Of a DNA stretch of 64,000 nucleotides, positions 8,961-50,414 are shown one piece after another. The notes under the pieces were generated by a model. That model was given only the letters and a program-made list of their open reading frames with translations. It ran no database searches and had not been told where the DNA came from. Origin of the DNA: Candidatus Desulfaltia sp. (GTDB taxonomy: Bacteria; Desulfobacterota; Desulfobacteria; Desulfobacterales; ETH-SRB1); NCBI GenBank assembly GCA_030656555.1, contig JAUSPN010000040.1, forward strand, positions 70,536-134,535. The letters run 5' to 3'. The translations under genes and the position numbers were made by a program. The number at the start of each line of letters is the position of its first letter. The stretch's first letter is position 1.

Positions 8961-8962
8961 TT

Positions 8963-10354
8963 ATGGATGGAAGAATTTTAATAGTTGACGATGAAAAGGA
9001 TATGCTTGTCCTTTTAAAAAGAATAATTGAAGAAAAGACCAAACATGTTGTTGAGACAGAATACAATCCTTTAAAGGTAGTAGAACTGCTTAGAAAACAG
9101 CAGTTTGATATTATAATAACTGATTTGAAAATGCCGAAAATGGATGGGATAGCTATCCTTGATATGGTAAAAAATATTCAACCCTCTGCTATCGTGGTAA
9201 TTATGACAGCATATGCCACTATTGAAACCGCTGTAGAAGCAACCAGAAAGGGCGCTTTTGACTATATATCCAAGCCATTCCGTAAAGAACGGATACTTAT
9301 AACAATTGGCAAGGCCATGGAATGGCAAAAGCTTACCCGGGAAAATATAACTCTGAAAAATTCCCTTAAGCAAAAAAAAGAATTTCCCCCAATTATCGGT
9401 TCAAGCCCTTCTATTATATCAATTACAAAAATGATTGTTCAGGTAGCCAAATCAACAGCTACGATTCTTATAAGCGGAGAAAGCGGCACAGGAAAAGAGC
9501 TGGTAGCAAAAGCTATTCATTATCACAGCAACCGTAAAAACAAACCTTTTATAACGATCAACTGTACCGCCATGCCTGAACAAATAATAGAAAGCGAACT
9601 TTTTGGCCACGTCAAGGGCTCCTTTACCGGCGCATGGAAGGATAAGAAAGGGATTGTTGAAGAAGCGGACCAGGGCACTCTTTTCTTAGACGAAATAGGA
9701 GATCTGAACATGGCCATGCAGGCCAAATTGCTTCGACTCCTGCAGGAAGGGGAATACAAGCCGGTTGGAGGTTTGACAACAGAAAAAGCAGATATCCGTT
9801 TTGTAGCCGCTACCAATCAAGATCTTAAAAAACTCATAGCAGTAAAGCAGTTTCGAGAAGACCTTTACTACAGGCTTAATGTTATTAATTTACACCTGCC
9901 CCCTTTAAGGGATAGAAAAGAAGATATTCCAGTTTTGGCATACCATTTTTTTGAAAAATTCAATTTGTTAAATGATAAAAAAATAAGTGGTATCGACCCC
10001 GAGGGAATATCAGCGCTAATATCTAAAAGCTGGCCCGGAAATATCAGGGAGCTGGAAAATTGTATTGAGCGTGGAGTTATCCTCTGCCAATCCGATACTA
10101 TTAAAATATCAGATATCCTGCCACAAGAACCTGTAGCGCATACTTCGCCTCTTTTTGATCACAAGATTTATACACTTCCATTTAAAGAGGCAAAGGAAAT
10201 CATTGTAAAGGCTTTTCATCACAAATATATTAACTGGATCCTTCAACAAAACAATGGTAATATTTCCAAGGCCGCCCAGCAGGCTGAACTGCAAAGACAA
10301 TATCTCCACAGGCTCATAAAAGAAGAGAATATTAACACTGAAATATTTAAATAA
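8963..10354 (+). CDS. Sigma-54-dependent response regulator (NtrC family: REC + AAA+ + Fis-type HTH)
   Basis: The receiver has ITDLKMPKMDG. Walker A is GESGTGKE, the sigma-54 contact loop is GSFTGA, Walker B is LFLDEIG, and the C-terminal HTH is GNISKAAQQAELQRQYLHRLIK. Confidence 0.95.
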   Translation: MDGRILIVDDEKDMLVLLKRIIEEKTKHVVETEYNPLKVVELLRKQQFDIIITDLKMPKMDGIAILDMVKNIQPSAIVVIMTAYATIETAVEATRKGAFDYISKPFRKERILITIGKAMEWQKLTRENITLKNSLKQKKEFPPIIGSSPSIISITKMIVQVAKSTATILISGESGTGKELVAKAIHYHSNRKNKPFITINCTAMPEQIIESELFGHVKGSFTGAWKDKKGIVEEADQGTLFLDEIGDLNMAMQAKLLRLLQEGEYKPVGGLTTEKADIRFVAATNQDLKKLIAVKQFREDLYYRLNVINLHLPPLRDRKEDIPVLAYHFFEKFNLLNDKKISGIDPEGISALISKSWPGNIRELENCIERGVILCQSDTIKISDILPQEPVAHTSPLFDHKIYTLPFKEAKEIIVKAFHHKYINWILQQNNGNISKAAQQAELQRQYLHRLIKEENINTEIFK

Positions 10355-13746: not shown

Positions 13747-13807
13747 ACCTCCTTTTCAGATAAAATGTTTGAACCGCAAAAGCGAGCGAATCCAAAAATA
13801 GGAATCT

Positions 13808-33509: not shown

Positions 33510-33959
33510 ATGGAACAATTAAAAATAATGCTTGTGGATGATGAGGAAAGGTTTCTTGCCACCACCAAAAAGCTGCTCGCAAAAAAGGGTCATGATATCC
33601 TGACGGCGACAAGCGGGTCTGAGGCATTAAATATACTAAAAACGAAAAAAGTTCATGTGGTTATTTTAGACGTTAAAATGCCCGGTATGAACGGTCTTGC
33701 AACCTTGAGGCAGATTAAAAAACTTTATCCCATGGTTGAGGTTATTATGTTGACAGGCCATGCAACCGGAGAAACAGCCGTGGATGTCTTGAATGCCGGC
33801 GCTACAGATTGTTTAATGAAACCTGTAGACATTGACGACCTTGTTCAAAAGGTGGAGGAAGCATCCGAGAAAAGACAAGGGCTGGAAGCAAAGATCCGTG
33901 CAGCTCAAACCGGGAGCACCGTGAAGCCTCCGAGATCTATTTCCGGTGAGACCAGATAA
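33510..33959 (+). CDS. Single-domain response regulator
   Basis: MLVDDEE, ILDVKMPGMNG and LMKPVDI motifs. Confidence 0.9.
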   Translation: MEQLKIMLVDDEERFLATTKKLLAKKGHDILTATSGSEALNILKTKKVHVVILDVKMPGMNGLATLRQIKKLYPMVEVIMLTGHATGETAVDVLNAGATDCLMKPVDIDDLVQKVEEASEKRQGLEAKIRAAQTGSTVKPPRSISGETR

Positions 33960-33997
33960 ATCTGAATGGCCGCGCTGCAATAAGGGAGTAAAATATC

Positions 33998-35698
33998 ATG
34001 GAACAGAAACATTTTTTTAAGGTGATAAGAAAAAAGATTCTGCTTAGCATGATATTGGTCCCTGTTATACCATTTATCCTGATACTCGGCATTGGTTATT
34101 ATTATTTTGTGACTTCTTTGGAGATCAATACCATTGCAAGCATGAAACGGATTAGCGCGGATCACAGGGAAATAATCGAGTCCTTTCTCACAGAACGCAG
34201 GAGCGACCTGGAATTTATTGCCGGCTCTTATACATTTCAAGAACTTAGCCGGCCAAAAGCACTTGCTGAAGTTTTTAATCGATTGCAGGGAAAATCTGAT
34301 ACATTTACCGATCTTGGGATATTTAATGACGCGGGTCTGCATGTGGCGTATCACGGTCCTTACAGGCTGACCGGTAAGATTTATAAGGATACCCAGTGGT
34401 TCCAGGAGGTAATGAAACACGGTTACTACATTAGTGATGTTTTTTTGGGTTACAGGAAGGTTCCGCACTTTGTTATCGCCGTTGCCCATGAGGAAAAGGG
34501 AAATAAATGGGTGATCCGTTCAACAATTGATACATTCAGATTTAATAATCTTGTAAGAAAAGTTCACATCGGAAAAACCGGCGAGGCTTATCTCCTTAAT
34601 GCTGAAGGCATGCTTCAGACAGAACGGCATTCTGGTGGGAACTTGATGGATAAGCCTTTGGATGGGATTCAATATCCGGAATCGCATAGAAGTACCAAAA
34701 GCTTCATAGATAAGGGCGTAAACGGAGTAAAATATCTATATGCTACAACCTGGATGAAGGATAAAAAATGGTTGCTGGTTATAAGGCAGGAAAAAGCAGA
34801 TGCATTCGAAGCGCTTACTTCGGCTGCTTACCTCATAATACTTATTGCGGTTATAGGCGGATCAGTCATTATTAGTGTTGCTTTTTATCTGACAAATGGA
34901 ATTGTTAAGCGTATGACACAAATGGATGAGGAAAAGGATCAGTTGGGTCAGCAACTAATCAGGGCAAGCCGGCTTGCGGAGATTGGTGAAATGGCTACAG
35001 GTTTTGCTCATGAAATCAACAATCCTCTTCAGATTATGAAAAGCGAGCAATCGCTTATAGAAATTTTCCTTTCAGAGCTAAAGGGAAATGGTCAGTTAAG
35101 TCAATCCGAAACATTGGTTGAGCTGGAGGATTCCCTTAATCAAATCGGACTTCAGATTAACCGTTGTGCCAAGATTACTCAAGCCATCCTTAAATTTGGC
35201 AGACAGAGCGACCCGGTGGCTGTAGATGTGGATTTTAAACAGTTTATCCCGGAAGTAACCGCCATGGTGGCAAAGAAAGCAAGTGTCAATGGTATTTCCT
35301 TAAAAGAGAACATATCGGAGGATACGCCTTTGATCCATGTGGATCCAGGGCAGTTGCAGCAGGTTTTTCTTAATCTTTTCAACAATGCTATTGATGCAAT
35401 TATCGAAAGACATGGATCTTCAGGGGGTGAGCTGGTTGTTGAATCAGGGCCGAAAGAGAACGGAAAGGTAGAAATTACGGTCAAAGATAATGGACAGGGC
35501 ATCAGCCCTGAAAACCTGAAAAAGATTTTCAGCCCGTTTTTTACCACCAAACCTGTAGGCAAAGGAACGGGATTGGGCCTTTCAGTGTGTTATGGTATTG
35601 TAGAGAGCATGGGTGGGGTAATGGATGTCAGCAGTGAAAAAGGTGTTGGCACTACTTTTACAATAACCCTGCCTGCTGCAATTTCGGCCGGTTTGTAA
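33998..35698 (+). CDS. Sensor histidine kinase with Cache-like domain (family 1)
   Basis: [19 protein letters not shown]; H-box [11 protein letters not shown]; HATPase motifs DNGQGI / GTGLGLS. Confidence 0.9.
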
Positions 35699-35730
35699 GC
35701 TGATGAAACCCGCAGGCTGAGGAGATTGGG

Positions 35731-36615
35731 ATGAATCAAGAAATAAAGGTTTTGCTGGTCGATGACGAAGATCAATTTCGATCGGTCACCAAAAAAATCC
35801 TGAATAAAAAAGGATTTGAAACCATTTTAGCAGGCTGCTGTGAAGAAGCTATCGATAAACTTAAAGAAAAACCGGATGTGGTAATTCTTGACATAAAGAT
35901 GCCTGGTGTAGATGGCCATCAAACTCTGAGAGAAATAAAGGAGCGTTATCCGGATCTTCCGGTAATTATGCTTTCAGGCCATGGGGTAATGCCTTCTGCC
36001 AGAGAATCTTTTGTTGAAGGGGCATTTGATTATCTTACAAAGCCGTGTGATATAGATATTCTGACGACTAAAATAATTGATGCCTGTAGTCGTGGAAAAG
36101 ATGAGCGGCACATGGAAGAAAAAAGGGTCATGGACATCATGGTTCCAATTCAGGATTACACTGCTTTAAGCATGGAAAGTACTGTCAGGGAAGCCATTGA
36201 TAAGCTGAAGGAGTCTTTTTCATCAAAGATATTGACCGGTAAAATTATGGGAAGAGAACACCACTTTCTTCTTGCATTGGATGATAGAGGAAAGGTGTCT
36301 GGAGTTTTAAGCATAACAGATCTGCTCAAAGCTGTTATCCCAGCCTACATTAGAAGTTCCGGCGCCGCTGTAACAGATAGTATCCGTTATTCATCCATGT
36401 TTTGGGCCGGTATGTTCAGCAGGGAAGTTAAACAACTGTCTGAAAAGAAAATCAAAGAGATCATGTCGCCCGCGCCGGTTACAATTGAAGGGGGGGCCAA
36501 TCTCATAGAAGCAGCCTATATGATGCTCAAAAATAAAGAGCACCTGCTTGTCGTCGTTACATTAGGAAAAGTTGAAGGTGTGATTCGAGAGCAGGATCTG
36601 TTTATTGAAATGTAG
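35731..36615 (+). CDS. Response regulator with CBS-pair output domain (REC-CBS)
   Basis: The receiver has ILDIKMPGVDG and LTKPCDI. Two CBS motifs follow in the C-terminal 150 aa. Confidence 0.9.
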   Translation: MNQEIKVLLVDDEDQFRSVTKKILNKKGFETILAGCCEEAIDKLKEKPDVVILDIKMPGVDGHQTLREIKERYPDLPVIMLSGHGVMPSARESFVEGAFDYLTKPCDIDILTTKIIDACSRGKDERHMEEKRVMDIMVPIQDYTALSMESTVREAIDKLKESFSSKILTGKIMGREHHFLLALDDRGKVSGVLSITDLLKAVIPAYIRSSGAAVTDSIRYSSMFWAGMFSREVKQLSEKKIKEIMSPAPVTIEGGANLIEAAYMMLKNKEHLLVVVTLGKVEGVIREQDLFIEM

Positions 36616-36632: not shown

Positions 36633-37004
36633 TTACGCCTTTTTCTTCCATGCCTCTTCTATTTTAGATATCAGCGCATCTATGTCACATGGCTTTGTTA
36701 AATAATCATAAGCGCCCTGCCTGATCACTTCAAGAGCGTCATCAATTGTGCCGTGACCTGTCAGGACAAGCGTCCTGGTAGAAAGTCCGAGTTTCCTGAT
36801 TTCTTCAAGAGTGGCTATACCGTCCATACCAGGCATCTTTACGTCCAGCACTATAACATCAAAGCTTTCTTCTTTAAGGGTTTGTATGGCGCTATCACCA
36901 CTGTTAACCGCCTTAACGCGATGCCCTTTTATTGTCAAAAGCTTTGACAGGTTTCTTGTAAATATAACTTCATCATCTACCAGTAAAATTTTAGCTCCTG
37001 TCAT
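36633..37004 (-). CDS. Single-domain response regulator
   Basis: LLVDDE, VLDVKMPGMDG and LTKPCDI motifs; 123 aa. Confidence 0.9.
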   Translation of the reverse strand: MTGAKILLVDDEVIFTRNLSKLLTIKGHRVKAVNSGDSAIQTLKEESFDVIVLDVKMPGMDGIATLEEIRKLGLSTRTLVLTGHGTIDDALEVIRQGAYDYLTKPCDIDALISKIEEAWKKKA

Positions 37005-37068
37005 TTTAATTCTTCCTTTGCCCCGAAACAGTATAAGTAAACTACTTTTGAGGTTATACCTGAAATGA

Positions 37069-37136
37069 GCGATTAGCTATTAGCGGTTAGCTCTTAGCTA
37101 AAGGCTAACTGCTAATGGCCAACAGCTAATCGCTTA
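37069..37136. repeat. Word-type imperfect palindrome built from GCTAA/TTAGC units
   Basis: AGCGATTAGCT (37070-37080) is the reverse complement of AGCTAATCGCT (37125-37135). The interior consists of repeated TTAGC / GCTAA words. Confidence 0.65.
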
Positions 37137-37148
37137 ACTTGGATTATA

Positions 37149-38216
37149 TCAAATACGCGACATATAGTGTAGCTGTTTCCAGTATTTTTTCTGAATCTCG
37201 ATTACCTTATTTAATTCAGAGAATTTAAAAAAAGAAGGCCTTTTTGCCTTTTCTATTTTTTCCGCAGATAGCGTGGAAACATCACAAAGCTCCTGCATAA
37301 CCCGAAGACCGCATTGAGTGTTTCCCTTCACACTGTAACCTCCTTCCAGGATAAAAACAATGCGTCCATTACAGACCTCCTCTGCCGTTTCCAGCAAAAG
37401 ACGGGTTATCAGCCCATAGCCTTCCGGCGTTACCTGCATACCGCCAAGCCTGTCATACATGTAAAGATCAAAACCGCAGGACACCAGAATTATATAAGGC
37501 TGATATTCCCGTGCAAGGGGCTTTATCAACTGATGGATAATTCTGGCAAAATCTTTGTCGCCATAACCTTTCCCAAGAGGAACATTGACTGTAAATCCCC
37601 TTCCTCTTCCTGTTCCGACTTCGCCCATCTTTCCGGTTCCAGGATAACATGGAAACTGATGCATGGAAACAAACAGCACCTCGTCGGTATCATAAAATGC
37701 AGACTGGGTTCCATTTCCGTGATGAACATCTATATCCACAATCATGACCTTATTGACCGAGTAATGTTCTTTCAGATACCTGGCCCCCAGGGCTATATTG
37801 TTAAAAAGGCAAAATCCCATGGCTTTATCGGCTTCAGCATGATGACCCGGCGGCCGGATACAGGCAAAGGCTCTTTTTGCCGTATCATTTCTAATTTCAT
37901 CCAGAAGGCTAAACACCGCGCCTGCCGCCAACCGGGCCACGTCATAAGACTTTGCAGTGGCCTGAGTATCTAAATCAAAAGAGCTGAGAGGTTTACCCGC
38001 TGTTTGCGCTATACTCTGGATATATTCCGGTGTATGCACCCAGGCGAGTTCTTCAGGGCCGGCCATTCTCGGTACTACCTCCAGCCACCTTCCTTCAAGA
38101 GAAGGATGCTTCAATACTGCCTGAAAGGCTTTAACCCTTTTGGCATTCTCCAGATGAAAAACATTTTCGAGATGCTGTGTAAACCGATTGTCTCTAATAA
38201 CAAGTACTGGTTTCAT
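37149..38216 (-). CDS. Histone-deacetylase-family Zn-dependent deacetylase (AcuC / acetylpolyamine amidohydrolase-like)
   Basis: RPPGHHA, DIDVHHGNGTQ, SCGFD and EGGYS catalytic/zinc motifs are all present. Confidence 0.9.
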   Translation of the reverse strand: MKPVLVIRDNRFTQHLENVFHLENAKRVKAFQAVLKHPSLEGRWLEVVPRMAGPEELAWVHTPEYIQSIAQTAGKPLSSFDLDTQATAKSYDVARLAAGAVFSLLDEIRNDTAKRAFACIRPPGHHAEADKAMGFCLFNNIALGARYLKEHYSVNKVMIVDIDVHHGNGTQSAFYDTDEVLFVSMHQFPCYPGTGKMGEVGTGRGRGFTVNVPLGKGYGDKDFARIIHQLIKPLAREYQPYIILVSCGFDLYMYDRLGGMQVTPEGYGLITRLLLETAEEVCNGRIVFILEGGYSVKGNTQCGLRVMQELCDVSTLSAEKIEKAKRPSFFKFSELNKVIEIQKKYWKQLHYMSRI

Positions 38217-38298
38217 ATTAAATATCGTAACCGTTCATGCCTGAAACAGGCTTTTTTTAACCGCAAAAGCGAGCGAATATAAAAACAGCAATTTTTAC

Positions 38299-38405
38299 AC
38301 CCCCCTTGCCCCCCTCAAGGGGGGAATAAATCGGAGCCCCCCACCAAGGGAATAAATCGGAAAAATTTCTTTATATTCCCCCTTTGAAGGGGGTTAGGGG
38401 GATGT
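38299..38405. repeat. C-run/G-run hairpin element with internal direct repeat
   Basis: Hairpins CCCCCCTCAAGGGGGG and CCCCCTTTGAAGGGGG, plus GGGAATAAATCGGA repeated twice. Confidence 0.6.
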
Positions 38406-38473
38406 TAATAGTAGCTAAAAAATGACAAATTCTGCCAAAATTAAATTTTTCACACTAATCTACAAAGAACCAC

Positions 38474-39709
38474 TCATTTTTTTGAGTTTGTAAATTTCTG
38501 GATAAGGTTTTTTGATTCCGGTATCTTTTTTTTGTATTTGTTAAGCATGGTTATGGCTGTTTTGCTGAATTCAGGATGCGCTCCTGGACGCAGGCATTCT
38601 TTGACACAGTCGATTGCCACTTTTCTTGAGAGTTCCTGTTTTTTGTCTTTTGCCTGCCTGCGCAGTGATTTAATTTGCTTTTTTATTATCCTGGTTATGG
38701 TTTTAATAATGTCAGGTCTTAGATTTTTGCAGTTATTTGCCATAATAATAATGGATTTTACAAGATGTCCTTTTGGATTTTTAAACGTATATTGGTAGAA
38801 ATTCCTGGACGCAAAACCGATTGATTCATAAAACCGCTTTGCGCCTATCTCAGAATCCAGGAAAAATTCCTTTACATCTGTTATTTTGCATTTCCACAGC
38901 ATCCAGATACCTGCCACCAAAAAGGTCCCAATACCTTTTGGAACCGGCTGTGTTGACACTCCGCTTAATGTGGCGATATATTTAAGTTCCATGCCTTTGT
39001 AAAACATTTCTTTTCTGAATTTAACAAAGATGAACCCCACGATTTTTTGTTTAACAACGCACGCGAAAAGTTTCTTCTCTGTTCCCTGGACCAGGCAGTT
39101 CAAAAGAAATCTAACGTTGAAATATTCTAAATTAATGTCACCCGCCTGCATCAGACTGTCCATGCAAAAGGGAAACTGCACGAAAAGGGCCTGGGTGTCA
39201 ATGCCGACAAGACCCCGGTATAATACAGCAGGATCTGTAACCTCTTCAGGCAGTTTGAGGTTTTGGTTGTTTTTTTTGATTTTTTCGAGAAAGGATATAA
39301 GATGCTCATAGGACTCAATGTTGTCTTTCTTTAATTGTGCTATCAAACAATCGATTTCATAGACAACCATTAACCGGAGTCCGGCATCCCGAATCTCTAT
39401 GGCGGCCTGTATGTAATTCAGCGGACCCTGTCTGTTTAAAAGTTCCTGTTTTTTAGTAAGTTCACCATGTTTGATCAAAAGCTGCTGCTCAACAGGAGCG
39501 GTGCCGTAGTTAAAATATATAAATTTTCTTACAGGGATTTTTTGTTTATCAAAAAAAAAATAAAAATCTCCTCCTGGTTCTATTTCGCCGGGAGGGGAAG
39601 GCGTGTCAATGCGTCTGCCTCTAAACATCTCATTCAACGAGTACCCGATTTCAGGATCCCTTTTTGAGATGTTATCTATGGCCTGTTTTAAATTCTCTTT
39701 TTTAATCAT
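38474..39709 (-). CDS. Hypothetical protein with GNAT-like acetyltransferase C-terminal half
   Basis: The residue 210-330 region, IVGFIFVKF....LKYIATLSGVSTQPVPKGIGTFLV....GAKRFYESIGF, resembles GNAT motif A (R/Q-x-x-G-x-G/A) and the A..FYE..GF tail. I do not recognise the N-terminal 200 aa. Confidence 0.6.
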   Translation of the reverse strand: MIKKENLKQAIDNISKRDPEIGYSLNEMFRGRRIDTPSPPGEIEPGGDFYFFFDKQKIPVRKFIYFNYGTAPVEQQLLIKHGELTKKQELLNRQGPLNYIQAAIEIRDAGLRLMVVYEIDCLIAQLKKDNIESYEHLISFLEKIKKNNQNLKLPEEVTDPAVLYRGLVGIDTQALFVQFPFCMDSLMQAGDINLEYFNVRFLLNCLVQGTEKKLFACVVKQKIVGFIFVKFRKEMFYKGMELKYIATLSGVSTQPVPKGIGTFLVAGIWMLWKCKITDVKEFFLDSEIGAKRFYESIGFASRNFYQYTFKNPKGHLVKSIIIMANNCKNLRPDIIKTITRIIKKQIKSLRRQAKDKKQELSRKVAIDCVKECLRPGAHPEFSKTAITMLNKYKKKIPESKNLIQKFTNSKK

Positions 39710-39724
39710 TGGTAAGGACAGGGG

Positions 39725-41377
39725 TTATCCGAAAAAAAACGGGAGCTTGACAATAAAAGAAGCCCCTTTACCGAGCTCGCTCTCAACAGAGATGCTGCCG
39801 CCCAGTCTTTTTAAAATATTCAAACAGATGGAAAGTCCCAATCCGGTTCCCTGCGGCTTTGTTGTAAAGAGAGGGTCAAAGATATTTTTTAAGTTTTCCT
39901 CGGAAATGCCCTTGCCGTTGTCGGTAATAATTACAGTTACGCCGTCTTCCACAGAGCGGGTTATAAAAATGATTTCTCCATCTTGTTCAATGGCGGACAT
40001 TGCATTTAAAACCAGATTTTGAAAGAGGTGGCGCAGTTTTGAAGCATCACTTCTTACAGAAGGAAAATCATGTTGGAAATCTAATTTTACATTAATATTT
40101 TTAAAACTGAATTCTTCCTTTAAAATCTCTAATAAATCATTCAATATTCCATTAATATTCACTTCTGTAATTATTGGATCGCCGGGTTTTATAAAATTAA
40201 AGAATTTATCAATTGCTTTTTGGCCGCGCAGGGCCTCTGACTTGACCTGCTCTATATTTTTCTTTATATCATCCAAACGGTTTTCTCGGGTCAGTTCCCT
40301 GATCCATGCGGCAGCTACATCTATATTGGCCAGCGTATCTTTTATCTCGCGAAAGAAACCATAAGACAGCTCCATTGATGATGCCAGATAACTGGCACGG
40401 CGAAGCTGCTGATTCAGGACATGAATATTGCTTTTGTTATATTCCAGCATGGATACCAGGCGATTGGTTGTCAGAATGACCGTCCAAACAATCATGAAAG
40501 CTCCAAGAAGAAAAACAAGACCGCCTAACATATATATATGGTATAATTTTGAAAATATATCCCGGCGATTAATTTCAACCACATAAAGCCAGGGAACCTT
40601 TTCCAGCCATAGTGTCATACGGACTATTCCATCTTTTTCCTCCATCCTGATGCCTTTAAAATGCTCAAGCTGTTTAATATCCGACTGTTCCATCAGCTTT
40701 CCCGCCATTCGGGAACTGGTTTGAAAAATTCCGCTTTTGTTGACCAGATAAGAGTCTTGTTTCTTTTGACCCGAAAGTTCTGAAACAAGGTCATTAAAAT
40801 AGGCGGCATTTACAGTGGCGCGCAGTATCCATGGGCCATTGCCGGTTGTTTTTTTCACGGCAATAATAAAATGCGGCTCATTGCGGAAACCCGGAAACAC
40901 ATCGCTGATATATACATCATGCTTCATGGCCTGCTCGAACCACAATGCATTTTTATAGTTTTTTGAAATTAACTGATAAGGCCCGGCATAAGCCAGATGT
41001 CCGCCCTGGCCGTCAATAACACCCAAGTCAATAAAGGATGACAATTCCTGGTTTAGAGAATTATAAACGCTTTCAATAACACCGGGCTGAATCATTTGGC
41101 TAAGGCTCAAATTATTCGAAACCAGTTTAAGATCCATGGTTCGTTCAGCCAGAAACTGATCAATAGCTTTTTTGTGACTCAGAACTTCCGTGCGCAGGGA
41201 TGTCAGGGTGTTTTGTTTTAAAACAGAAGAAGCATAGTAATACATTCCGCCGCCTATAATAATGAGCGGTATTAAAGAAACCGCCAGCAGCGCTACTACA
41301 ATATTGTTCCTGATACGGCGGAAATAAGGGTAGTCTTGTTGCTGAAAATTACGAAATGTATTCAGAACTCCGGACAT
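39725..41377 (-). CDS. Cache-type sensor kinase paralog with degenerate H-box (phospho-acceptor His replaced by Arg)
   Basis: It shares YISDVFPGFRNEPHFIIAV with family 1. The HATPase N/G boxes are intact (NLVLNAMSA, DNGKGI, GTGLGLS). The H-box reads GFFREIKDT where paralogs have (I/F)AHEINNP. Confidence 0.85.
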   Translation of the reverse strand: MSGVLNTFRNFQQQDYPYFRRIRNNIVVALLAVSLIPLIIIGGGMYYYASSVLKQNTLTSLRTEVLSHKKAIDQFLAERTMDLKLVSNNLSLSQMIQPGVIESVYNSLNQELSSFIDLGVIDGQGGHLAYAGPYQLISKNYKNALWFEQAMKHDVYISDVFPGFRNEPHFIIAVKKTTGNGPWILRATVNAAYFNDLVSELSGQKKQDSYLVNKSGIFQTSSRMAGKLMEQSDIKQLEHFKGIRMEEKDGIVRMTLWLEKVPWLYVVEINRRDIFSKLYHIYMLGGLVFLLGAFMIVWTVILTTNRLVSMLEYNKSNIHVLNQQLRRASYLASSMELSYGFFREIKDTLANIDVAAAWIRELTRENRLDDIKKNIEQVKSEALRGQKAIDKFFNFIKPGDPIITEVNINGILNDLLEILKEEFSFKNINVKLDFQHDFPSVRSDASKLRHLFQNLVLNAMSAIEQDGEIIFITRSVEDGVTVIITDNGKGISEENLKNIFDPLFTTKPQGTGLGLSICLNILKRLGGSISVESELGKGASFIVKLPFFFG

Positions 41378-41403
41378 GACCTATAAGCTCTCCGTAAATG
41401 CTT

Positions 41404-41959
41404 GGTGCAATACAAAAAGTTGCATCATTGATGATAATATCTTTAGCTATTCAACATACTGATTTAATGTCGAATGTCGAACAGGAAATGTTAAATTATG
41501 AAGTTTTATTCTTGTTTTGTTTAGCAGTACCTACGCTTGTTACAAAAATCGAGATTAATTGATTATTTTCATCTATCAATACGTCAAGTTTTGACACTGG
41601 TTTTATCAATCCGGCCTTCACAATTATAAGCAGCCATATTCTGGTTTCCCTTAATTCTTTCAGCGCTAATCGCATCTTATGGATAAAATCAGCTCTTGAT
41701 TCAGCACTTTGTGCTTCACCATAATTTGGAGCTGGTGATGTCCCACTACGAATAAGCTGGCGGGAAATATGATTTCCAATTTTTGTTTTCGGTAATGACT
41801 CTGCTGTTCTGATAACACGTACAGCAAAATCGATCAGCCGTTCTTCAAGGTCAAATTCTCTGCATACCTTCGACATTCATTATTCCCTGTTCGACATTCG
41901 ATATTCAAAAAAGTTGCCCTTTTAATCTCTATACCTTATCACTTTTTTGTATTGCATCT
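41404..41959. mobile_element. Inverted-repeat cassette carrying a four-helix-bundle ORF, flanked by 10-bp direct repeats
   Basis: Direct repeat GTAAATGCTT at 41394-41403 and 41960-41969. Terminal inverted repeat TGCAATACAAAAAGT (41406-41420) / ACTTTTTTGTATTGCA (41941-41956). Inner inverted repeat AATGTCGAATGTCGAACAGG (41466-41485) / CCTGTTCGACATTCGATATT (41886-41905). Confidence 0.55.
41496..41876 (-). CDS. Four-helix-bundle protein (23S rRNA intervening-sequence protein / Avd-like family)
   Basis: 126 aa. Family-typical motifs are QLIRSGTSPAPNYGEAQSAESRADFIHKMRLALKELRET. Confidence 0.85.
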   Translation of the reverse strand: MSKVCREFDLEERLIDFAVRVIRTAESLPKTKIGNHISRQLIRSGTSPAPNYGEAQSAESRADFIHKMRLALKELRETRIWLLIIVKAGLIKPVSKLDVLIDENNQLISIFVTSVGTAKQNKNKTS

Positions 41960-42007
41960 GTAAATGCTTAAGTTTTATCGTATATTACTACCACTGATCC
42001 CTGTCCC

Positions 42008-42871
42008 TTACTCTGTTTCATGTTCAATATATTGAAAAATATCCTGTATTCTTATAATCCCGATTACCGTCTCATTTTTTACAACAGGCATTGTCCTGAA
42101 ATTATGGGTAATCATGCGGTGCGCTGCCTCTGTAAGGCGTTCATCGGGCCGGGCGGTTATTATTTCTGTTTGCATGACTTCAATTACGGTTTTATTGGAA
42201 AGCCAGTGGGGGCTTTTGCTGAGTTCCATCCACCTTAAAGAGAATTCAGGCTGCATTTTCTGTGCTTCATTTATCAGGTCCCGTTTGGTGATAAAGCCCT
42301 GAAGCCTGTCTTTATCATCTATAACAAACAGGGTTTCCGCCCCTGTTTCTCCTGTTTCCCTGTTAAACTTGTCCACTGCCTTTGCAAGTAAATCCTCTGG
42401 TCTGAGTTTTTTGAAATCATGGCACATGATTTCTTTAACCAGATTTCTGGGCCACAGCACTGGATTACGCTTGATTGCCTCTGCATCATTAGCCTCTCTT
42501 ATCTTTGCAGCCAAATCCTCTATGTTGCAGGGTTTCATCAGGTAATCATATGCCCCCTCTCGTATTGCCTGAATTCCGGTTTCCAGCGTGGCATGCCCTG
42601 TCAGTATAATAATTTCCGTGTCAGGAGCCAGCTCTTTAATTTTCCTGAGAGTTTCGATTCCGTCCATACCCGGCATTTTAATATCCAGAACCACCACGTC
42701 AAACTCATCTTCACGTTTAACCGCATCCAATGCATCAAACCCGTCAAATGCGGTAAACACTTCAAATTCTCTTATCCTTAATATCTTGGCCATGCTGAGC
42801 GTAAGCTGTTTTTCATCATCTACGATCAGGACGCGAATTTTTTTGTTCAAATCAAAAATCTCCAATACCAA
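42008..42871 (-). CDS. Response regulator with CBS-pair output domain (REC-CBS)
   Basis: The receiver has VLDIKMPGMDG and LMKPCNI, followed by two CBS motifs. The architecture matches 35731. Confidence 0.9.
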   Translation of the reverse strand: MVLEIFDLNKKIRVLIVDDEKQLTLSMAKILRIREFEVFTAFDGFDALDAVKREDEFDVVVLDIKMPGMDGIETLRKIKELAPDTEIIILTGHATLETGIQAIREGAYDYLMKPCNIEDLAAKIREANDAEAIKRNPVLWPRNLVKEIMCHDFKKLRPEDLLAKAVDKFNRETGETGAETLFVIDDKDRLQGFITKRDLINEAQKMQPEFSLRWMELSKSPHWLSNKTVIEVMQTEIITARPDERLTEAAHRMITHNFRTMPVVKNETVIGIIRIQDIFQYIEHETE

Positions 42872-43140: not shown

Positions 43141-43258
43141 CCCTGAACCTTTGAACCGTGAACCTGTGAACGGTTACGTAATAAGTAACCGTTCACGGTC
43201 GTCGGTTCATAGTTTTTTCAACCGTGAACCGATAACTGTAAACCGTGAACGGTTACTA
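43141..43258. repeat. GTGAACCG-word repeat array including an ORF-less miniature of the 49.9-kb four-helix-bundle cassette
   Basis: Perfect hairpin GTGAACGGTTAC-gtaataa-GTAACCGTTCAC (43166-43196). Blocks 43243-43256, 43213-43238 and 43185-43208 match, in inverted orientation and the same order, blocks 49864-49877, 49945-49971 and 50341-50364. Confidence 0.75.
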
Positions 43259-43282
43259 TAGTCTTTAGCGGGTTTTACCGCT

Positions 43283-44588: not shown

Positions 44589-46721
44589 ATGGCTGTTGAT
44601 AAGACTTACAAAAGCAGAAGATGGGGCATTATTGTTGTGGTCATAGTTTCCATAGTTCCCATGGCAATTGCTTTGATTCTGGGGTTTTTGTCTATCAGGG
44701 ACATGAAAGGTGTGGTAGGCAGACAGTTTACCGAGGAACAACTGATCATTGCTCAGAATGTCTCCTATTTTATTGAAAGGCAAATCAACCTGTTAAAAGG
44801 AGAGATTATTCTTCTCAGCAAGAATGTTTCCGGAACATCCGGTGATAATCATGAATTTATCCGGAATGCAGCCATAGGTCTTTTTGATTCCGGTGTTTCA
44901 GAAATTGATGTTCTTAACCTGGATGAAAAGAATATCCATATATATAATTCTCATGGATATCGATCAGAAAAGCAGGCTATTGCTCCCGGGTGGTACAACG
45001 GACTTCATCCTGATAAAAGAAACGGCAGTGAAGTCATGGTTTCCATGCCACAGATCGAACCATCCGGCATAAGTGTAAAGCTGGCAAAATTTATGGATAC
45101 TGATTCCAGGAGACTGCTTGTTTTTACGGTCAATGTATCCGGGTTCGTCACACCCCTTTTGAAAAATATCCATCCCGGAGAAACAGGCTATGTGTGGATT
45201 ATTGACCAGAACGGAACTCTCCTTTTTCATCCTGAGCCTGAATCCGTGGGCAAAAATATTTTTGCGGAGCATGAAAACCAGGATATTTATGTTCCCCGTG
45301 AAAAGATCATTTTTGATCAAAGAAAAAAGATGTTAAACGGCCGGGAGGGCACAGGCTGGTATATTGCCGGCTGGCATCGTGGAGTTAGCGGAAAAACAAA
45401 GAAGCTGATAGCCTATTGCCCGATTGTTATATCCGGCAACCCGCCTCAAAACTGGTCAGCAGCCGTTGTAACACCCGCGTCTGAAATAGAAAAACCCATT
45501 CATTCCGGCTATTTGTGGCATTTCCTGTTACAGGTGGTAATGGTTGTTGTTGTTTTGTTGACCGCGGCGATCATGGTCATAATAGAAGTAAAACGGTCTC
45601 GTATCCTGCAGGAAAAGGTTGTCGTACAGAAACGCAAACTTACAATAACAGAAGAAAAATATCGTTTTCTGATTGAGAGCGCGGAAGACTTTATTTTTGC
45701 TGTTGATCAGGACGGCGTCTTTCAATCCATGAATAGCTTTACAGCCGGGTTTTTTGACGGTCAACCTGAAGATTTTGTCGGCAAAAACATCTCAGACCTG
45801 TTCCCCGCGAGAATCGCTGAAAAGCAGCTCGAACTGGTAAGGAAGGTTTATAAATTCGAAAAAAGCTTTAGCGGAGAGTTGGTGCTTAAAGAGAATGGCC
45901 GCCAGGCATGGATAAGCGCCGAGTTCATGCCTGTAAGAAACGAAGAGCGGGAAGTAACTTCAGTATTGTGCATCGGCAGAGATCTTACTGAAAAGAAAAA
46001 GATGGAGGCACAGCTTATCAATGCCGAAAAACTGGCTTCCGTAGGGACTCTCGCAGCGGGCGTGGCTCATGAAATTAATAACCCGATGGGGGTTATATTA
46101 GGCCTTTGCGATCTTTTGCTGGATAAAGCACCCCAAAAGAGTCAGTTGTATGAAGATATCAGGACAATACAGCGGCACAGCCTCCATTGCAAAGAAATCA
46201 TAGGGGATCTTTTAAGCTTTGCGCGCCCTGGTGGAGTGGAGCCGGGATATGCTGATTTAAATATCAGCCTTAAGGAAATAATCAGGGTGGTCGAGCCTGC
46301 ACTTAAGAAGCAAAATATCAATCTGATGCTGGATTTGGCCGAAGATATACCCCAGGTCAAGGGGAATTCACGCCAGTTGCAGCAGGTTTTCCTGAATTTA
46401 ATAAAAAACGGGGCTGGATCTATGATTGGCGGAGGCACGCTTACCATCCGTACAAGCATGGAAAACAGCAGACAAAACGCCGTCATTCAGTTCGAGGATA
46501 ATGGAGTTGGAATTAAAGAGGAACATATAAGCCATATATTTGAACCTTTTTTTACTACAAAGCCGGAAGGGGAAGGCACAGGTCTGGGTCTGTTCGTCAG
46601 CTATGGTATTGTTGCCGGGTATGGAGGGAGCCTGACATTTACCAGCCATGCTGCGGATTCCCATGGCAAAACAGGGACTACCTTTACCATAAAACTGCCT
46701 GTGAGGGTAGCTAATGGCTAA
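44589..46721 (+). CDS. Sensor histidine kinase (extracytoplasmic Cache-like + PAS + HisKA + HATPase; family 2)
   Basis: GYVWIIDQNGTLLFHP; PAS region [21 protein letters not shown]; H-box [11 protein letters not shown]; GTGLGLF. Confidence 0.9.
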   Translation: MAVDKTYKSRRWGIIVVVIVSIVPMAIALILGFLSIRDMKGVVGRQFTEEQLIIAQNVSYFIERQINLLKGEIILLSKNVSGTSGDNHEFIRNAAIGLFDSGVSEIDVLNLDEKNIHIYNSHGYRSEKQAIAPGWYNGLHPDKRNGSEVMVSMPQIEPSGISVKLAKFMDTDSRRLLVFTVNVSGFVTPLLKNIHPGETGYVWIIDQNGTLLFHPEPESVGKNIFAEHENQDIYVPREKIIFDQRKKMLNGREGTGWYIAGWHRGVSGKTKKLIAYCPIVISGNPPQNWSAAVVTPASEIEKPIHSGYLWHFLLQVVMVVVVLLTAAIMVIIEVKRSRILQEKVVVQKRKLTITEEKYRFLIESAEDFIFAVDQDGVFQSMNSFTAGFFDGQPEDFVGKNISDLFPARIAEKQLELVRKVYKFEKSFSGELVLKENGRQAWISAEFMPVRNEEREVTSVLCIGRDLTEKKKMEAQLINAEKLASVGTLAAGVAHEINNPMGVILGLCDLLLDKAPQKSQLYEDIRTIQRHSLHCKEIIGDLLSFARPGGVEPGYADLNISLKEIIRVVEPALKKQNINLMLDLAEDIPQVKGNSRQLQQVFLNLIKNGAGSMIGGGTLTIRTSMENSRQNAVIQFEDNGVGIKEEHISHIFEPFFTTKPEGEGTGLGLFVSYGIVAGYGGSLTFTSHAADSHGKTGTTFTIKLPVRVANG

Positions 46722-46756: not shown

Positions 46757-48229
46757 ATGACTGCCAGAATACTCATAATAGATGACGAGAAAGATATGCT
46801 GAATGTTTTGAAGCGGATTATCTCCGAAAAGAGAAACTACAGCGTAACCATTGAACCTGATCCGATAATTGCCCTTGAATTGTTTATGAAAGATCCATTT
46901 GATCTGGTCATAACCGATTTAAAGATGCCCGGTATGGACGGTATCAAGCTCCTTGAAGAGGTCAAAAAGATCAGCCCCGGAACTTCGGTTTTTGTCATGA
47001 CCGCTTACGGCACAATTGAAACCGCAGTGGATGCGATTAAAAAAGGCGCCTATGATTACATAACCAAACCGTTTCTGTCGGAACATGTCCTGCTGACAAT
47101 AGACAAGGCTGTGAAATGGCGGCAGATGGTAAAGGAAAACCTTGCTCTCCGCCAGGCCCTGGAGGAAAAAGAGGGTTATCCGCCTATAATCGGGGCCAGC
47201 CCGGCTATAAGGGAGGTGTTTGAACATATCAGGCAGGTGGCCCCGAGCATGGCTACGGTTTTAATCACAGGCCCGAGCGGCACGGGCAAGGAACTGGTTG
47301 CCGGGGCTATTCACAGGAATAGCCGCAGAAGCTCCAAAGCAATGGTTACCATCAACTGTACGGCCTTACCTGAACAGATTATGGAAAGCGAGCTTTTTGG
47401 TCATGTAAAGGGCGCGTTCACGGGGGCCTGGCGAGATAAAAAGGGCCTGGTTGAGGAGGCGCACGAAGGAACCCTGTTTTTGGATGAAATCGCCGACCTG
47501 AGCCCTTTTATGCAAACCAAGCTGCTCAGGCTCCTGCAGGATGGTGAGTATAAGCCGGTTGGCGGCGTTTTTACCAAAAAAGCCGACATCCGAGTTATCG
47601 CCGCTACCAACCATGATATAACCCGGGATGTAAAGGAAAAACGTTTCAGAGAAGACCTTTATTATCGGTTAAACGTGGTGCATATTGAACTGCCTCCGCT
47701 TAGTGAAAGAAAAGAGGATATTCCGCTTATAGCTTATCATTTCATGGAAAAGTATGCCCGTATAAACCAGAAGGATATCCGGGAAATTTCCCCCCCGGCC
47801 ATGCAGGCGCTGCTTTTAAATGAGATGCCGGGCAATGTCAGGGAGCTGCAAAATATCATCGAGCGCGGGATTATTTTTTGCCAAAGTAATGTTATGGAAA
47901 TGAAAGACCTGTTTCCTAAAATAGAACTGAAACCCCCTTGTCTGAAATCAGATCAGGACATGTATATGTGTTGCATTCGCCTTAAAGACGCAAAGGACTT
48001 GGCGATAAAGGACTTTAAAAATGCAAGGGAAGAGATGATCCGTTTGTTTCATTCATGGTATGTAAAGCAGGTTCTCCTGGAAAGCAGGGGAAACATTACC
48101 AGAGCTGCTGATATGGCAGGCATTCAAAGGCAATATCTTTACCGGTTGATGAAAGAAGCAGGCATAAACCGCAAACAGTTTAAACCCGACCCCGACCCGA
48201 CCTCTACCCACCCCACACACAAACTGTAA
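46757..48229 (+). CDS. Sigma-54-dependent response regulator (NtrC family)
   Basis: ITDLKMPGMDG, GPSGTGKE, GAFTGA and LFLDEIA motifs; HTH GNITRAADMAGIQRQYLYRLMK. Confidence 0.95.
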   Translation: MTARILIIDDEKDMLNVLKRIISEKRNYSVTIEPDPIIALELFMKDPFDLVITDLKMPGMDGIKLLEEVKKISPGTSVFVMTAYGTIETAVDAIKKGAYDYITKPFLSEHVLLTIDKAVKWRQMVKENLALRQALEEKEGYPPIIGASPAIREVFEHIRQVAPSMATVLITGPSGTGKELVAGAIHRNSRRSSKAMVTINCTALPEQIMESELFGHVKGAFTGAWRDKKGLVEEAHEGTLFLDEIADLSPFMQTKLLRLLQDGEYKPVGGVFTKKADIRVIAATNHDITRDVKEKRFREDLYYRLNVVHIELPPLSERKEDIPLIAYHFMEKYARINQKDIREISPPAMQALLLNEMPGNVRELQNIIERGIIFCQSNVMEMKDLFPKIELKPPCLKSDQDMYMCCIRLKDAKDLAIKDFKNAREEMIRLFHSWYVKQVLLESRGNITRAADMAGIQRQYLYRLMKEAGINRKQFKPDPDPTSTHPTHKL

Positions 48230-48389: not shown

Positions 48390-48405
48390 TGGCACATGTT
48401 TTGCT
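48390..48405 (+). promoter_or_regulatory. Sigma-54 (-24/-12) promoter
   Basis: TGGCAC-atgtt-TTGCT is an exact match to the consensus core. It lies 160 nt downstream of the activator gene. Confidence 0.85.
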
Positions 48406-48733: not shown

Positions 48734-49783
48734 ATGACTGAAGTAAAAGATGAAAAAAGGATGGGATGGGAGTCTGCTCGCGAGATCGAGGCAGAAAAAG
48801 CAACCATGGCCGAGAGAGCAATGCTGACCAAGGAAAATATTAAAACTTTGCTGATGTATTCGGTAGCCTTTGTCGGTCTTTTTGCTGTCGCCTGGTGGCT
48901 GGCTGGCTGTCCGTTTGAGTTTACACAGCGCCTTCCCTCGGAATATGTGGTAAAACATGGCTTGGTCGGCACAACCAACTGGACGATTGTATGGTATGTT
49001 GTTTTTATGTGCGCATTTTTTGAGTTTATGGATTCTGCCGGCGGCATGGGCTACGGCACAGCCCTGACACCGCTGATGCTTATAGCAGGCTTTGATCCAA
49101 AGCAGGTTGTGCCCTGCGTAATGATCACAGAGGCTTTCACAGGGCTGATAGCCGGGATGGTGCACAGTGAATTCGGCAATGTGGAGTGGAGTTTCAGCCC
49201 CTTAAACGAGACCACAAAGCTGACGGTATTAGTCTGCGCCGTCGGTATTGTGTGCGTCTGCTTCTCCATTACCGCGGCTTACAAGGTTTTAAAAGTCCAC
49301 AAGGTATGGATCAAGCTTTATGTGGCCGTCCTTCTGGTGGTAATGGGGATCTGCTCCCTCATGACGGCTAAGAAGTATACGACGTACAGGCCCAAGTGGA
49401 TGATTTTATTCGCGGGTCTTGGCGGCTTTAACAAGGGTGTTGGAGGCGGAGGCTACGGCCCGGTTATTACGGTCGGCGGCCTTCTTGCCGGTGTTCCCGT
49501 AAAGAGCATGGTGGCCATCACCTCCCTGGCAGAAGGCGTAACATGCGTGTTTGCCGTGGGTATGTGGTTTATCCTTCTTTCCACAGGGGTGGTCATCGAC
49601 TATATGCTCCTGCCGTCGTTTGTAATCGGCACGGTCATAGCTGCTGTTGCCGCGCCTTATGTAACGCGGATTTTTTCGGAAAAGTTCTGGAAGATCCTTG
49701 TTCCTACCTATTGCTGTATCCTGGCAGTTTACTGCTTCTATAAGATCATTCCAAGTGTTATAAAGAAGCTGAAAGCCGGCTGA
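48734..49783 (+). CDS. TSUP-family (TauE/SafE-like) permease, divergent member
   Basis: Polytopic, with glycine motifs DSAGGMGYGTALTP and GVGGGGYGPVITVGG. The RBS is AAGGAGG. Confidence 0.75.
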   Translation: MTEVKDEKRMGWESAREIEAEKATMAERAMLTKENIKTLLMYSVAFVGLFAVAWWLAGCPFEFTQRLPSEYVVKHGLVGTTNWTIVWYVVFMCAFFEFMDSAGGMGYGTALTPLMLIAGFDPKQVVPCVMITEAFTGLIAGMVHSEFGNVEWSFSPLNETTKLTVLVCAVGIVCVCFSITAAYKVLKVHKVWIKLYVAVLLVVMGICSLMTAKKYTTYRPKWMILFAGLGGFNKGVGGGGYGPVITVGGLLAGVPVKSMVAITSLAEGVTCVFAVGMWFILLSTGVVIDYMLLPSFVIGTVIAAVAAPYVTRIFSEKFWKILVPTYCCILAVYCFYKIIPSVIKKLKAG

Positions 49784-49862: not shown

Positions 49863-49990
49863 CGTAACCGTTCACGGTTACCCCTGTTCTTAGTGCTTGA
49901 CCACGATATAAAACTCATGTAAGGAAAAAGAGGATAACATTTTACAGTTATCGTTTCACGGTTGAAAAAAATAAAAGGTAGAGGAAATTT

Positions 49991-50356
49991 ATGGGATCCT
50001 CTTTTGAAGATTTAGAAGTTTGGAAAAAATCTTGTAGATTGTCAGTGCGTTTTTATAAATTATTAAGAGATTGCCGGGATTATGGAATGAAAGATCAAAT
50101 GATGCGCTCATCTATATCTATTCCATCAAATATTGCAGAAGGAAGCGAAAGAAAGAGTGTTCCGGATTTCCAAAGGTTTATAAATATTGCACAGGGATCG
50201 GCTGCGGAGCTGAGAACACAGATTTATATTTCACGAGAGGTTAATATATTTTCTGATTCAGATGCGAAAGAATTGATTCAAGAGTTGAAATCAATATCCA
50301 AAATGCTTCAATCGTTGCATGGTTCGTTAAAAAAAACCGTGAACCGACAACCGTGA
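49991..50356 (+). CDS. Four-helix-bundle protein (23S rRNA intervening-sequence protein / Avd-like family)
   Basis: 121 aa with family-typical motifs FEDLEVWKKS, DQMMRSSISIPSNIAEGSER and FINIAQGSAAELRTQ. It is flanked by GTGAACCG-word inverted repeats. Confidence 0.85.
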   Translation: MGSSFEDLEVWKKSCRLSVRFYKLLRDCRDYGMKDQMMRSSISIPSNIAEGSERKSVPDFQRFINIAQGSAAELRTQIYISREVNIFSDSDAKELIQELKSISKMLQSLHGSLKKTVNRQP

Positions 50357-50414
50357 ACTGTTACGGATTGTCAATCTTTTAACACTTAACTGCTTAACAC
50401 ATTTCGAAAAAACT

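Follow-up and report, generated by a model that had tools for sequence, protein, structure and literature searches.

Can the sensor kinases and receivers of a bacterial two-component network be wired to an acetyltransferase and a deacetylase encoded beside them? The question is raised by positions 36,633-42,871 of a window of 64,000 nucleotides (nt), by which we mean the whole stretch of DNA analysed, from Candidatus Desulfaltia sp. (assembly GCA_030656555.1, contig JAUSPN010000040.1, positions 70,536-134,535, forward strand). An earlier note had read this region as an acetylation-based signalling module, and all the open reading frames (ORFs) that it listed are found where it placed them, on the minus strand: a receiver protein with paired CBS domains (REC-CBS, 42008-42871), a dCache kinase paralog without a phospho-acceptor histidine (39725-41377; hereafter the pseudokinase), a GNAT-like protein of 411 amino acids (aa) (X411, 38474-39709) whose gene begins, as claimed, 15 nt past the kinase stop, an HDAC-family deacetylase (37149-38216) and a stand-alone receiver protein (REC, 36633-37004). 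The reading that we favour, while holding it tentatively, is that the module acts as a switch for reversible lysine acetylation, tied into a two-component network, analogous to the AcuABC system of Bacillus while built from non-orthologous parts, with acetyl-CoA synthetase (Acs, of the AMP-forming type) as its likely target. More doubtful is a fuller version in which a two-component pathway has a bifunctional lysine acetyltransferase/deacetylase as its output, the direction of which would be set by a ligand-binding pseudokinase together with a phosphorylatable, nucleotide-sensing REC-CBS, making the module a dedicated phosphorylation-to-acetylation converter, possibly with feedback acetylation of its own receivers. 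Of the earlier proposal, the part that linked two-component components to an acetylation writer and eraser stands, on conserved synteny and on gene fusion in 14 related loci; the part that made the receivers the substrates finds no support.

A conserved cluster and an often fused pair of putative enzymes

Scanning genomes with the 411-aa protein, we recovered 41 loci, all of them in metagenome-assembled genomes (MAGs) of Desulfobacterota (Desulfobacterales, Desulfatiglandales, Desulfosarcina, Desulfatitalea and Desulfococcaceae), and mapped the proteins of the window onto them; these related loci, fetched from other genomes, carry L-numbers below. The earlier note had called for a survey of this neighbourhood in relatives, and the kinase-GNAT-HDAC-REC arrangement turns out to be strongly conserved there. 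The genes for REC-CBS, the His-less kinase, the GNAT-like protein and the HDAC are co-directional, and the arrangement recurs in ~30 independent loci, far beyond chance. REC-CBS is the first gene of the module throughout, with an ortholog upstream in ~30 loci; a full-length His-less kinase lies between it and the GNAT/HDAC genes in 25 loci and a truncated one in 2; and of the 36 assessable loci 35 have the HDAC gene next to the GNAT-like gene or fused with it, the exception being L036. At least one sensor-kinase-like protein with a dCache domain accompanies the pair in nearly every case, most often the His-less paralog with its ATP-binding domain retained.

Three forms of the cluster can be told apart: one of four genes (form i: REC-CBS, pseudokinase, GNAT, HDAC), an extended one in which a kinase gene, HK2, and a REC-only gene are added downstream (form ii), and one that lacks the pseudokinase (form iii: REC-CBS, a GNAT-HDAC fusion, HK2, REC). 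The window and its sister locus L001 (92-97% identical) have a derived form ii, which has lost HK2 and has a shorter REC gene, an inserted gene for a four-helix-bundle protein and 257 nt of repeat-filled spacer separating GNAT from HDAC. The C-terminal divergence that the L001 ortholog appears to show comes from masked bases or a frameshift in that assembly. Further variants occur. A 576-aa protein with VWA and FHA domains is encoded between the HDAC and HK2 genes in one lineage (L043 12740-14470 and L044 2940-4670), a hint that some modules include a part that binds phospho-threonine. Two modules are decayed: L036 (7371-9392) has a fragmented pseudokinase and a GNAT-like gene with no HDAC after it, and L039 (6628-9152) has a frameshifted pseudokinase and GNAT-like gene beside intact HDAC, HK2 and REC genes.

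The association is closest between the two putative enzymes. GNAT and HDAC form a single ORF of 750-860 aa in 14 loci (in L033, for example, at 7941-10337), and ~22 full-length representative clusters among 1.84 billion proteins are fusions of this kind; in the unfused relatives the two genes mostly overlap, abut or lie no more than ~150 nt apart, with gaps of 147-393 nt in four unfused loci. Such fusions are Rosetta-stone evidence that the two form an obligate functional pair.

The 411-aa protein itself escaped routine annotation. It has no match in NCBIfam; its alignment to Acetyltransf_10 (E 4e-4, residues 208-300) is sub-threshold, with 12 of 21 family members matching that profile at E<0.01; and the sole match of a full-length profile against PDB sequences was a designed protein, which we judged spurious. 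Because identification from sequence failed, fold prediction and a domain-only profile were needed. In an AF2 model built on a 40-sequence alignment (pLDDT 81, pTM 0.78) the N-terminus, though highly conserved, is poorly ordered; it is followed by three long helices, a beta-rich core (residues 162-310) and a helical domain at the C-terminal end, dividing the protein into an N-terminal segment with helices (residues 1-150), a GNAT core (~160-312) and the C-terminal helical domain (315-411). The top 50 Foldseek matches in PDB are all GNATs, among them archaeal Ard1, Naa50/NatC and the AtaT/TacT toxins (probability 1.00, target template-modelling score 0.5-0.66, best E 1.5e-4), and model and search together bear out the GNAT fold that the earlier note had suspected. 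Both signature motifs are in place in fused and unfused members alike: G259 and G261 are invariant in the pyrophosphate-binding loop of motif A, K-G-[VI]-G-T-F-L, as are E287, Y294, G298 and F299 in motif B (Glu-x6-Tyr...Gly-Phe), and a profile of the GNAT core alone, searched against PDB sequences, finds GNATs exclusively, with motifs A and B aligned. An apparent loss of motif B in the fused forms was rejected as the artefact of an over-strict pattern, the alignment showing the motif to be kept.

The exact X411 sequence is recorded from a Candidatus Desulfaltia MAG, where it is annotated as hypothetical. It has 123 close homologs, none of them annotated or carrying a Pfam domain; the family comprises 106 representative clusters among 1.84 billion proteins, and an exhaustive profile search of these representatives found no remote relatives outside it. 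By these searches it is a small, closed, new and divergent GNAT family, and on the modelled fold we propose that X411 is the acetyl-CoA-dependent lysine acetyltransferase half of the switch.

The deacetylase is far easier to place. It matches PF00850 at E 3e-93 (312.8 bits against a cutoff of 27.9), and the catalytic and zinc motifs that the earlier note had called intact (PGHH, DxDxHHGNG, GFD and EGGY) are indeed all present; the window protein shares these four motifs, with the catalytic His-His, the zinc ligands (Asp/His/Asp) and the Tyr, with 31 of 33 orthologs. Its best PDB relatives are the HDAC6 catalytic domains, plant HDAC15 and bacterial HDAH, with a residue-level alignment to both catalytic domains of HDAC6 (CD1 and CD2) that takes in GFD...LGG and EGGY; 59 of the 60 best PDB matches are class II or bacterial HDAH-type amidohydrolases, the class I enzyme HDAC8 coming sixtieth (E 3.7e-36). 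The gatekeeper, seven residues past the zinc-binding Asp, is Leu in the window HDAC and in HDAC6 CD2, whereas the polyamine deacetylase HDAC10 has Glu at that position, and acetyl-lysine substrates are therefore favoured. The ratio of non-synonymous to synonymous substitution rates (dN/dS) between window and L001 is 0.22 for this gene, and a homology search with the HDAC, which gave orthologs only, found no REC-HDAC or CBS-HDAC fusions. We propose that this putatively zinc-dependent, class II, HDAC6-like enzyme is the eraser half of the switch.

Might the GNAT-like domain instead be no transferase at all? It could act as an acetyl-CoA or CoA sensor, or as a substrate dock for the HDAC, so that only deacetylation would be under signal control while acetylation came from acetyl-phosphate or another lysine acetyltransferase (KAT). 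Several properties of the domain fit such a role: it is very divergent, falling below Pfam thresholds, with a motif A that lacks the usual R/Q and Foldseek E values of only ~1e-4; it is set between helical domains, N- and C-terminal, that are specific to the family; a futile cycle is a danger once writer and eraser are fused; and a regulatory ligand-binding fold beside a deacetylase has a precedent in AcuB (PMC13039410). Against it, the motif A glycines, E287/Y294 and the GF that follows are invariant at the positions usual in catalytic GNATs, across 29-55% identity and in fused and unfused members. Fusions of writer and eraser are, besides, common in bacterial signalling (GGDEF-EAL proteins, GlnE, bifunctional histidine kinases), which also counts against a purely sensing domain. 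We regard this alternative as unlikely.

The pseudokinase and the receivers

Upstream of this enzyme pair stands a protein with the layout of a membrane sensor kinase: a transmembrane segment, a periplasmic dCache domain, a second transmembrane segment, a DHp domain without its acceptor His and a CA domain with intact ATP-binding boxes. Pfam finds dCache_1 and HATPase_c (E 6.8e-25) and no match to HisKA. The loss of the phospho-acceptor that the earlier note had noticed is real, for the protein has Arg at that position, in 'GFFREIKDTL', whereas a paralog encoded on the plus strand (33998-35698), 32% identical over the full length, has the His of the H-box. Comparing kinases from the 41 related loci, we find the acceptor His missing in 25 of 25 full-length pseudokinase orthologs, which have Arg, Gln, Tyr, Glu, Leu or Ile in its place and no alternative conserved His near the H-box position; 'AHEINNPL' is kept in 19 HK2 orthologs and in 4 orthologs of the plus-strand kinase. 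Conservation of the N, G1, F and G2 boxes stays at 90% or more across the 25 His-less orthologs, and the pseudokinase probably still binds ATP. The gene is old and under selection and not decaying, its dN/dS against the sister MAG being 0.19. Among the loci examined, the His-less paralog is confined to this position in the cluster. Two shortened versions (L030 6853-7947 and L032 6873-7958; 361-364 aa) keep HATPase_c and lack the dCache sensor, and may be cytoplasmic.

REC-CBS combines Response_reg (E 8.5e-31) with a CBS pair (E 2.8e-24); an ACT domain finds no match. Its true start is likely at 42850, since orthologs align from residue 8 and the identical gene in L042 is called at 280 aa. It has the lowest of the dN/dS values that we obtained between window and L001, at 0.15. 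The stand-alone REC (123 aa; Response_reg E 2.4e-31) is the ortholog of the REC that follows HK2 in the extended cluster, at 61-71% identity in 19 loci; the window protein is C-terminally shorter, at 123 against ~155 aa, and HK2 is missing here. The earlier note had counted three receiver domains: 36633-42871 holds two, and two further ones lie just outside it on the plus strand, at 35731-36615 and 33510-33959. These belong to a convergent, paralogous two-component set (33510-36615, all assigned by Pfam) that consists of a REC (33510-33959), a His-containing dCache kinase with the H-box 'AHEINNPL' (HKp, 33998-35698) and a second REC-CBS (35731-36615). Orthologs of the set follow the module on the same strand in L027, L035, L039 and L043, and in this genome the set is likely to be the phosphodonor for the module.

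Phosphotransfer itself appears to have been retained. Thirty REC-CBS orthologs conserve the DD/D/T/K phospho-pocket, and across these and 20 REC orthologs the acidic pocket, the acceptor Asp, the Thr and the Lys are invariant or nearly so; most relatives, moreover, encode the His-containing HK2 in the cluster. Acetylation working 'instead of' phosphotransfer, as the earlier note had allowed, is not supported by these observations.

The substrates proposed in that note were the receivers themselves: the pseudokinase would sense a ligand and gate acetylation or deacetylation of REC-CBS and REC, modulating or replacing Asp phosphorylation. Receiver acetylation is an established precedent, as the note had said, since CheY is acetylated at K92/K109 by Acs or acetyl-CoA and deacetylated by CobB, and RcsB is modified too (PMC6640162); receiver proteins are thus open to control by lysine acetylation and deacetylation, although in these cases the modification is made and removed by general enzymes or chemistry (Acs, Pat/YfiQ, acetyl-phosphate, CobB) encoded elsewhere and not in a dedicated operon. 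REC-CBS is inseparable from the GNAT/HDAC genes in ~30 loci, the four-gene form has no His-kinase nearby, and in L004, L005 and L008 the REC gene adjoins the gene for Acs, which is known to acetylate CheY (PMC6640162). Yet full phospho-pockets and a genuine kinase in most loci argue for continued phosphotransfer, the four-gene form has no stand-alone REC, which is thus not a universal substrate, and no distinctive conserved lysine was identified. Adjacency, moreover, fits a regulator as well as a substrate, and the characterised operon that joins a GNAT, a CBS protein and an HDAC uses the CBS protein as a regulator (PMC13121692, PMC13039410), a precedent that suggests REC-CBS as a regulator of the deacetylase and not as its substrate. 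On balance we find the receivers improbable as the substrates, and propose instead, by analogy, that REC-CBS is a phospho- and nucleotide-controlled adaptor of the GNAT/HDAC pair.

Likely target and precedents

If the receivers are not what the pair modifies, what is? In L012 the gene right after the HDAC encodes an AMP-forming acetate--CoA ligase (TIGR02188, 997 bits against a cutoff of 725), and orthologs of this acs gene (76-100% identity) stand beside the module in 12 loci. It directly follows the HDAC in seven of them (L009, L010, L012, L017, L019, L020 and L024) and comes after HK2 and REC in L004, L005 and L008, three loci that, beyond the lineage of the window itself, count among its closest relatives; in L029 it lies downstream, cut by the contig end, and in L038 upstream on the opposite strand, so that it is co-directional and immediately downstream in 11 of the 12, with L038 as the exception. 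All 10 full-length copies examined have PKTRSGKIMRR at the C-terminal end, the lysine of which is the classic acetylation site of Acs (PMC6640162). Because a gene for Acs with its acetyl-lysine motif adjoins the cluster in 12 loci, a metabolic enzyme is the suggested target. Downstream of acs in L010, L012, L019 and L024 are an MFS transporter gene and a second, ~30% identical PF00850 gene on the opposite strand (for example L012 12885-15735).

The pair might alternatively have a small-molecule substrate, for instance an acetylated polyamine or some other amine or amide, with the two-component genes regulating or responding to that metabolism. In bacteria PF00850 takes in many amidohydrolases, of acetylpolyamines and of other kinds (PMC11532494), the HDAC counts dimethoate and propanil hydrolases among its PDB relatives, many GNATs acetylate small molecules, and transporter genes (TauE, MFS, CitMHS, Na_Ca_ex) lie around the cluster. 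Four points make this very unlikely: the gatekeeper is that of the protein deacetylase HDAC6 CD2, the nearest solved relatives of the HDAC are HDAC6 domains, the best structural matches of the GNAT are protein N-acetyltransferases, and the adjacency of acs, with its classic acetyl-lysine motif, favours a protein target. Least probable of all is that the two-component genes and the enzyme pair are neighbours by inherited synteny and functionally uncoupled, for although every locus comes from one phylum and the region is prone to rearrangement (HK2 loss, inversion, insertion of the four-helix-bundle gene and of repeats), the order REC-CBS, (pseudokinase), GNAT, HDAC survives down to 29-40% protein identity, through three locus forms, fusion and changing flanks, with genes that often overlap or lie less than 30 nt apart and a His-less paralog seen only in this position among the loci examined.

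The acetylation switch that we favour has a close precedent. The earlier note held that no dedicated operon of this kind had been described, which overlooks acuABC of Bacillus subtilis and Geobacillus: there the GNAT AcuA acetylates and inactivates AcsA, the HDAC-like AcuC reactivates it, and the CBS protein AcuB binds and inhibits AcuC under the control of AMP or Ap4A on its Bateman domain (PMC13121692, PMC13039410), contacting AcuC through an ACT domain (PMC13039410). In both systems a Bateman (CBS-pair) protein is encoded together with a GNAT and with a Zn-dependent enzyme of the HDAC family, and in 12 loci related to the window a gene for an AMP-forming acetyl-CoA synthetase adjoins the module. 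They differ in that no part is orthologous, as judged from best PDB matches and domain content, AcuA not being among the best matches of the GNAT model or profile; in that the GNAT here belongs to a very divergent new family with extra N- and C-terminal domains; in the membrane dCache kinase-like sensors of the module and in the fusion of writer and eraser in many genomes; and in that acs is not adjacent in the window. The module plausibly works like AcuABC, to judge by this analogy, without being a member of it.

For the pseudokinase the nearest comparison is with the DivL/DivK/CckA system of Caulobacter, where DivL reads the phosphorylation of a receiver and passes it on, an instance of reverse signalling (PMC4211667). 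As in DivL, the acceptor His is lost and the DHp-CA fold kept, and the protein is encoded with a single-domain receiver and genuine kinases; unlike DivL, which has Tyr at the His position and cytoplasmic PAS domains, the proteins here have Arg, Gln or another residue there and a periplasmic dCache domain, and the partner proposed for them is a pair of acetylation enzymes and not another kinase. Other acetate-related systems share single traits. In Pat/CobB and RpPat-KatA/LdaA a GNAT acetylates the A10-motif lysine of Acs and a deacetylase removes the group, LdaA being an HDAC-type enzyme (PMC6640162) that reactivates Acs in R. palustris (PMC6640162), and CrbS/R is a two-component system for acetate utilisation that regulates acs (PMC5715377). 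In all of these, unlike here, writer and eraser genes are unlinked, the input is acetyl-CoA, cAMP, NAD+ or transcriptional control, and no sensor-kinase-like protein or receiver is encoded with the enzymes.

How would such a switch work? From anatomy, fold, motif conservation, fusion, synteny and acs adjacency, all observed, we infer every interaction and activity in the following scheme. The GNAT/HDAC pair would be the enzymatic output of a multi-kinase network, the GNAT writing with acetyl-CoA and the HDAC erasing. REC-CBS would set the balance between the two, phosphorylated by His-containing dCache kinases (HK2 in the relatives, the kinase at 33998-35698 here), while adenine-nucleotide status would be read by its Bateman module, on the analogy of the inhibition of AcuC by AcuB. 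The membrane pseudokinase would bring in a ligand signal from the periplasm, whether by docking the GNAT protein, encoded 15 nt on, or by sensing phosphorylated REC in the manner of DivL. The target would be the acetyl-CoA synthetase of the AMP-forming type, at the Lys of PKTRSGKIMRR, and possibly other enzymes, the outcome being that acetate activation is coupled to external and energetic signals. In the lineage of the window, rearrangement would have removed HK2 and the adjacency of acs, leaving the module genes intact and under purifying selection.

Several facts weigh against this scheme, and account for the reserve with which we put it forward. On the side of the enzymes, the leading Q/R of motif A is not conserved in the GNAT family, the Acetyltransf_10 scores (20.7-23.3 bits) fall below the Pfam gathering cutoff of 23.6, all members of the 411-aa family come from uncultured MAGs and are annotated as hypothetical, and the deacetylase is class II, HDAC6-like, and not AcuC-like (class I-like). 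The CBS protein here has a receiver in place of the ACT domain, so that the analogy with AcuB is functional only. The wiring is variable, the pseudokinase being wholly missing in three loci and a His-kinase absent from the cluster in nine loci of the four-gene form, and in the window itself the genes are separated by intergenic gaps of 257 and 144 nt and by one inserted gene. Finally, no acs gene is present in the 64-kb window, and its adjacency is limited to the clade with unfused genes (0 of 14 fusion loci); the link to acs holds, by this distribution, for the clade of the window and not for the whole family.

Local remodelling and significance

The window is one of the more disturbed versions of the cluster. 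Between the REC-CBS and pseudokinase genes the earlier note saw an 'inserted repeat cassette' (41378-42007); what lies there is a single-copy gene (41496-41876, minus strand), not repeated elsewhere in the window, for a 126-aa protein of the four-helix-bundle/23S rRNA intervening-sequence protein (23S rRNA-IVP) family (PF05635, E 2.5e-14; TIGR02436, E 3.9e-23). The family includes the Avd proteins of diversity-generating retroelements; no reverse transcriptase is found near the gene. Of the fetched loci only L001 and L042 have it besides the window, and by this distribution it is a lineage-specific insertion, outside the conserved module.

Repeats mark both of the larger gaps. The 257-nt spacer between the GNAT and HDAC genes (38217-38473, minus strand) contains short G/C-rich palindromic or direct repeats, such as CCCCCTTCAAAGGGGG and a duplicated CCGATTTATTCCC, and a 20-nt exact copy of part of it recurs at 13772-13791; it looks like the insertion of a small repeat element, separating genes that overlap, abut or are fused in most relatives. 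The spacer between the HDAC and REC genes (37005-37148) consists mostly of iterated TTAGC/TAGCT-like units, and may be the scar of the deletion that took out HK2, which is found there in relatives. Consensus scans for promoters and terminators, with counts about those of shuffled sequence, gave no convincing minus-strand terminator between the module genes, and the window has no Rfam matches.

Upstream of the REC-CBS gene (43150-43260, minus strand) is an array of direct and inverted GTTCACGGTT-type repeats, near-identical 30-nt copies of which stand at 49941-49970 and 50331-50364, near the TauE gene and the genes downstream of it; they could serve as a common operator or represent a small dispersed repeat. 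No convincing sigma-54 promoter site was found upstream of REC-CBS, though sigma-54 activators surround the cluster. The sole perfect sigma-54 -24/-12 consensus, TGGCACATGTTTTGCT (48390-48405, plus strand), belongs to another operon: it stands just past the gene for a sigma-54-dependent response regulator (46757-48229) and upstream of that for a TauE-family permease (48734-49783), and a dCache-PAS kinase (44589-46721) together with the regulator probably controls this TauE transporter operon. Transporter genes more generally (TauE, MFS, CitMHS, Na_Ca_ex) flank the clusters. On the minus strand at 27471-29939, an 822-aa protein joins a weak N-terminal dCache_1 match (residues 71-276) to a sigma-54 activator AAA+ domain without a receiver, and may be a membrane-anchored one-component enhancer-binding protein of unusual architecture.

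Literature searches yielded no GNAT-HDAC fusion, no other natural fusion of a KAT with a lysine deacetylase, no REC-CBS regulator and no module of this kind, and a survey of bacterial classical deacylases makes no mention of GNAT fusions or of a two-component context. A module that is an AcuABC-like switch newly wired to two-component sensors, and often a writer-eraser fusion, therefore appears to be undescribed. The control of protein acetylation in bacteria is largely open, the action of AcuB on AcuC, published in 2026, being the sole mechanistically understood case for an HDAC-type enzyme. To this the acetylation switch proposed here would add a new and unannotated GNAT family, the obligate and often fused partner of an HDAC6-like enzyme; genomic evidence that sensors of extracellular signals and phospho-receivers can be hard-wired to an acetylation writer-eraser pair; and a conserved histidine pseudokinase with a testable partner. 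Every part can be expressed as a small soluble protein or domain, which makes the predictions directly testable. For the organisms themselves, it suggests how acetate-oxidising sulfate reducers may gate the activation of acetate.

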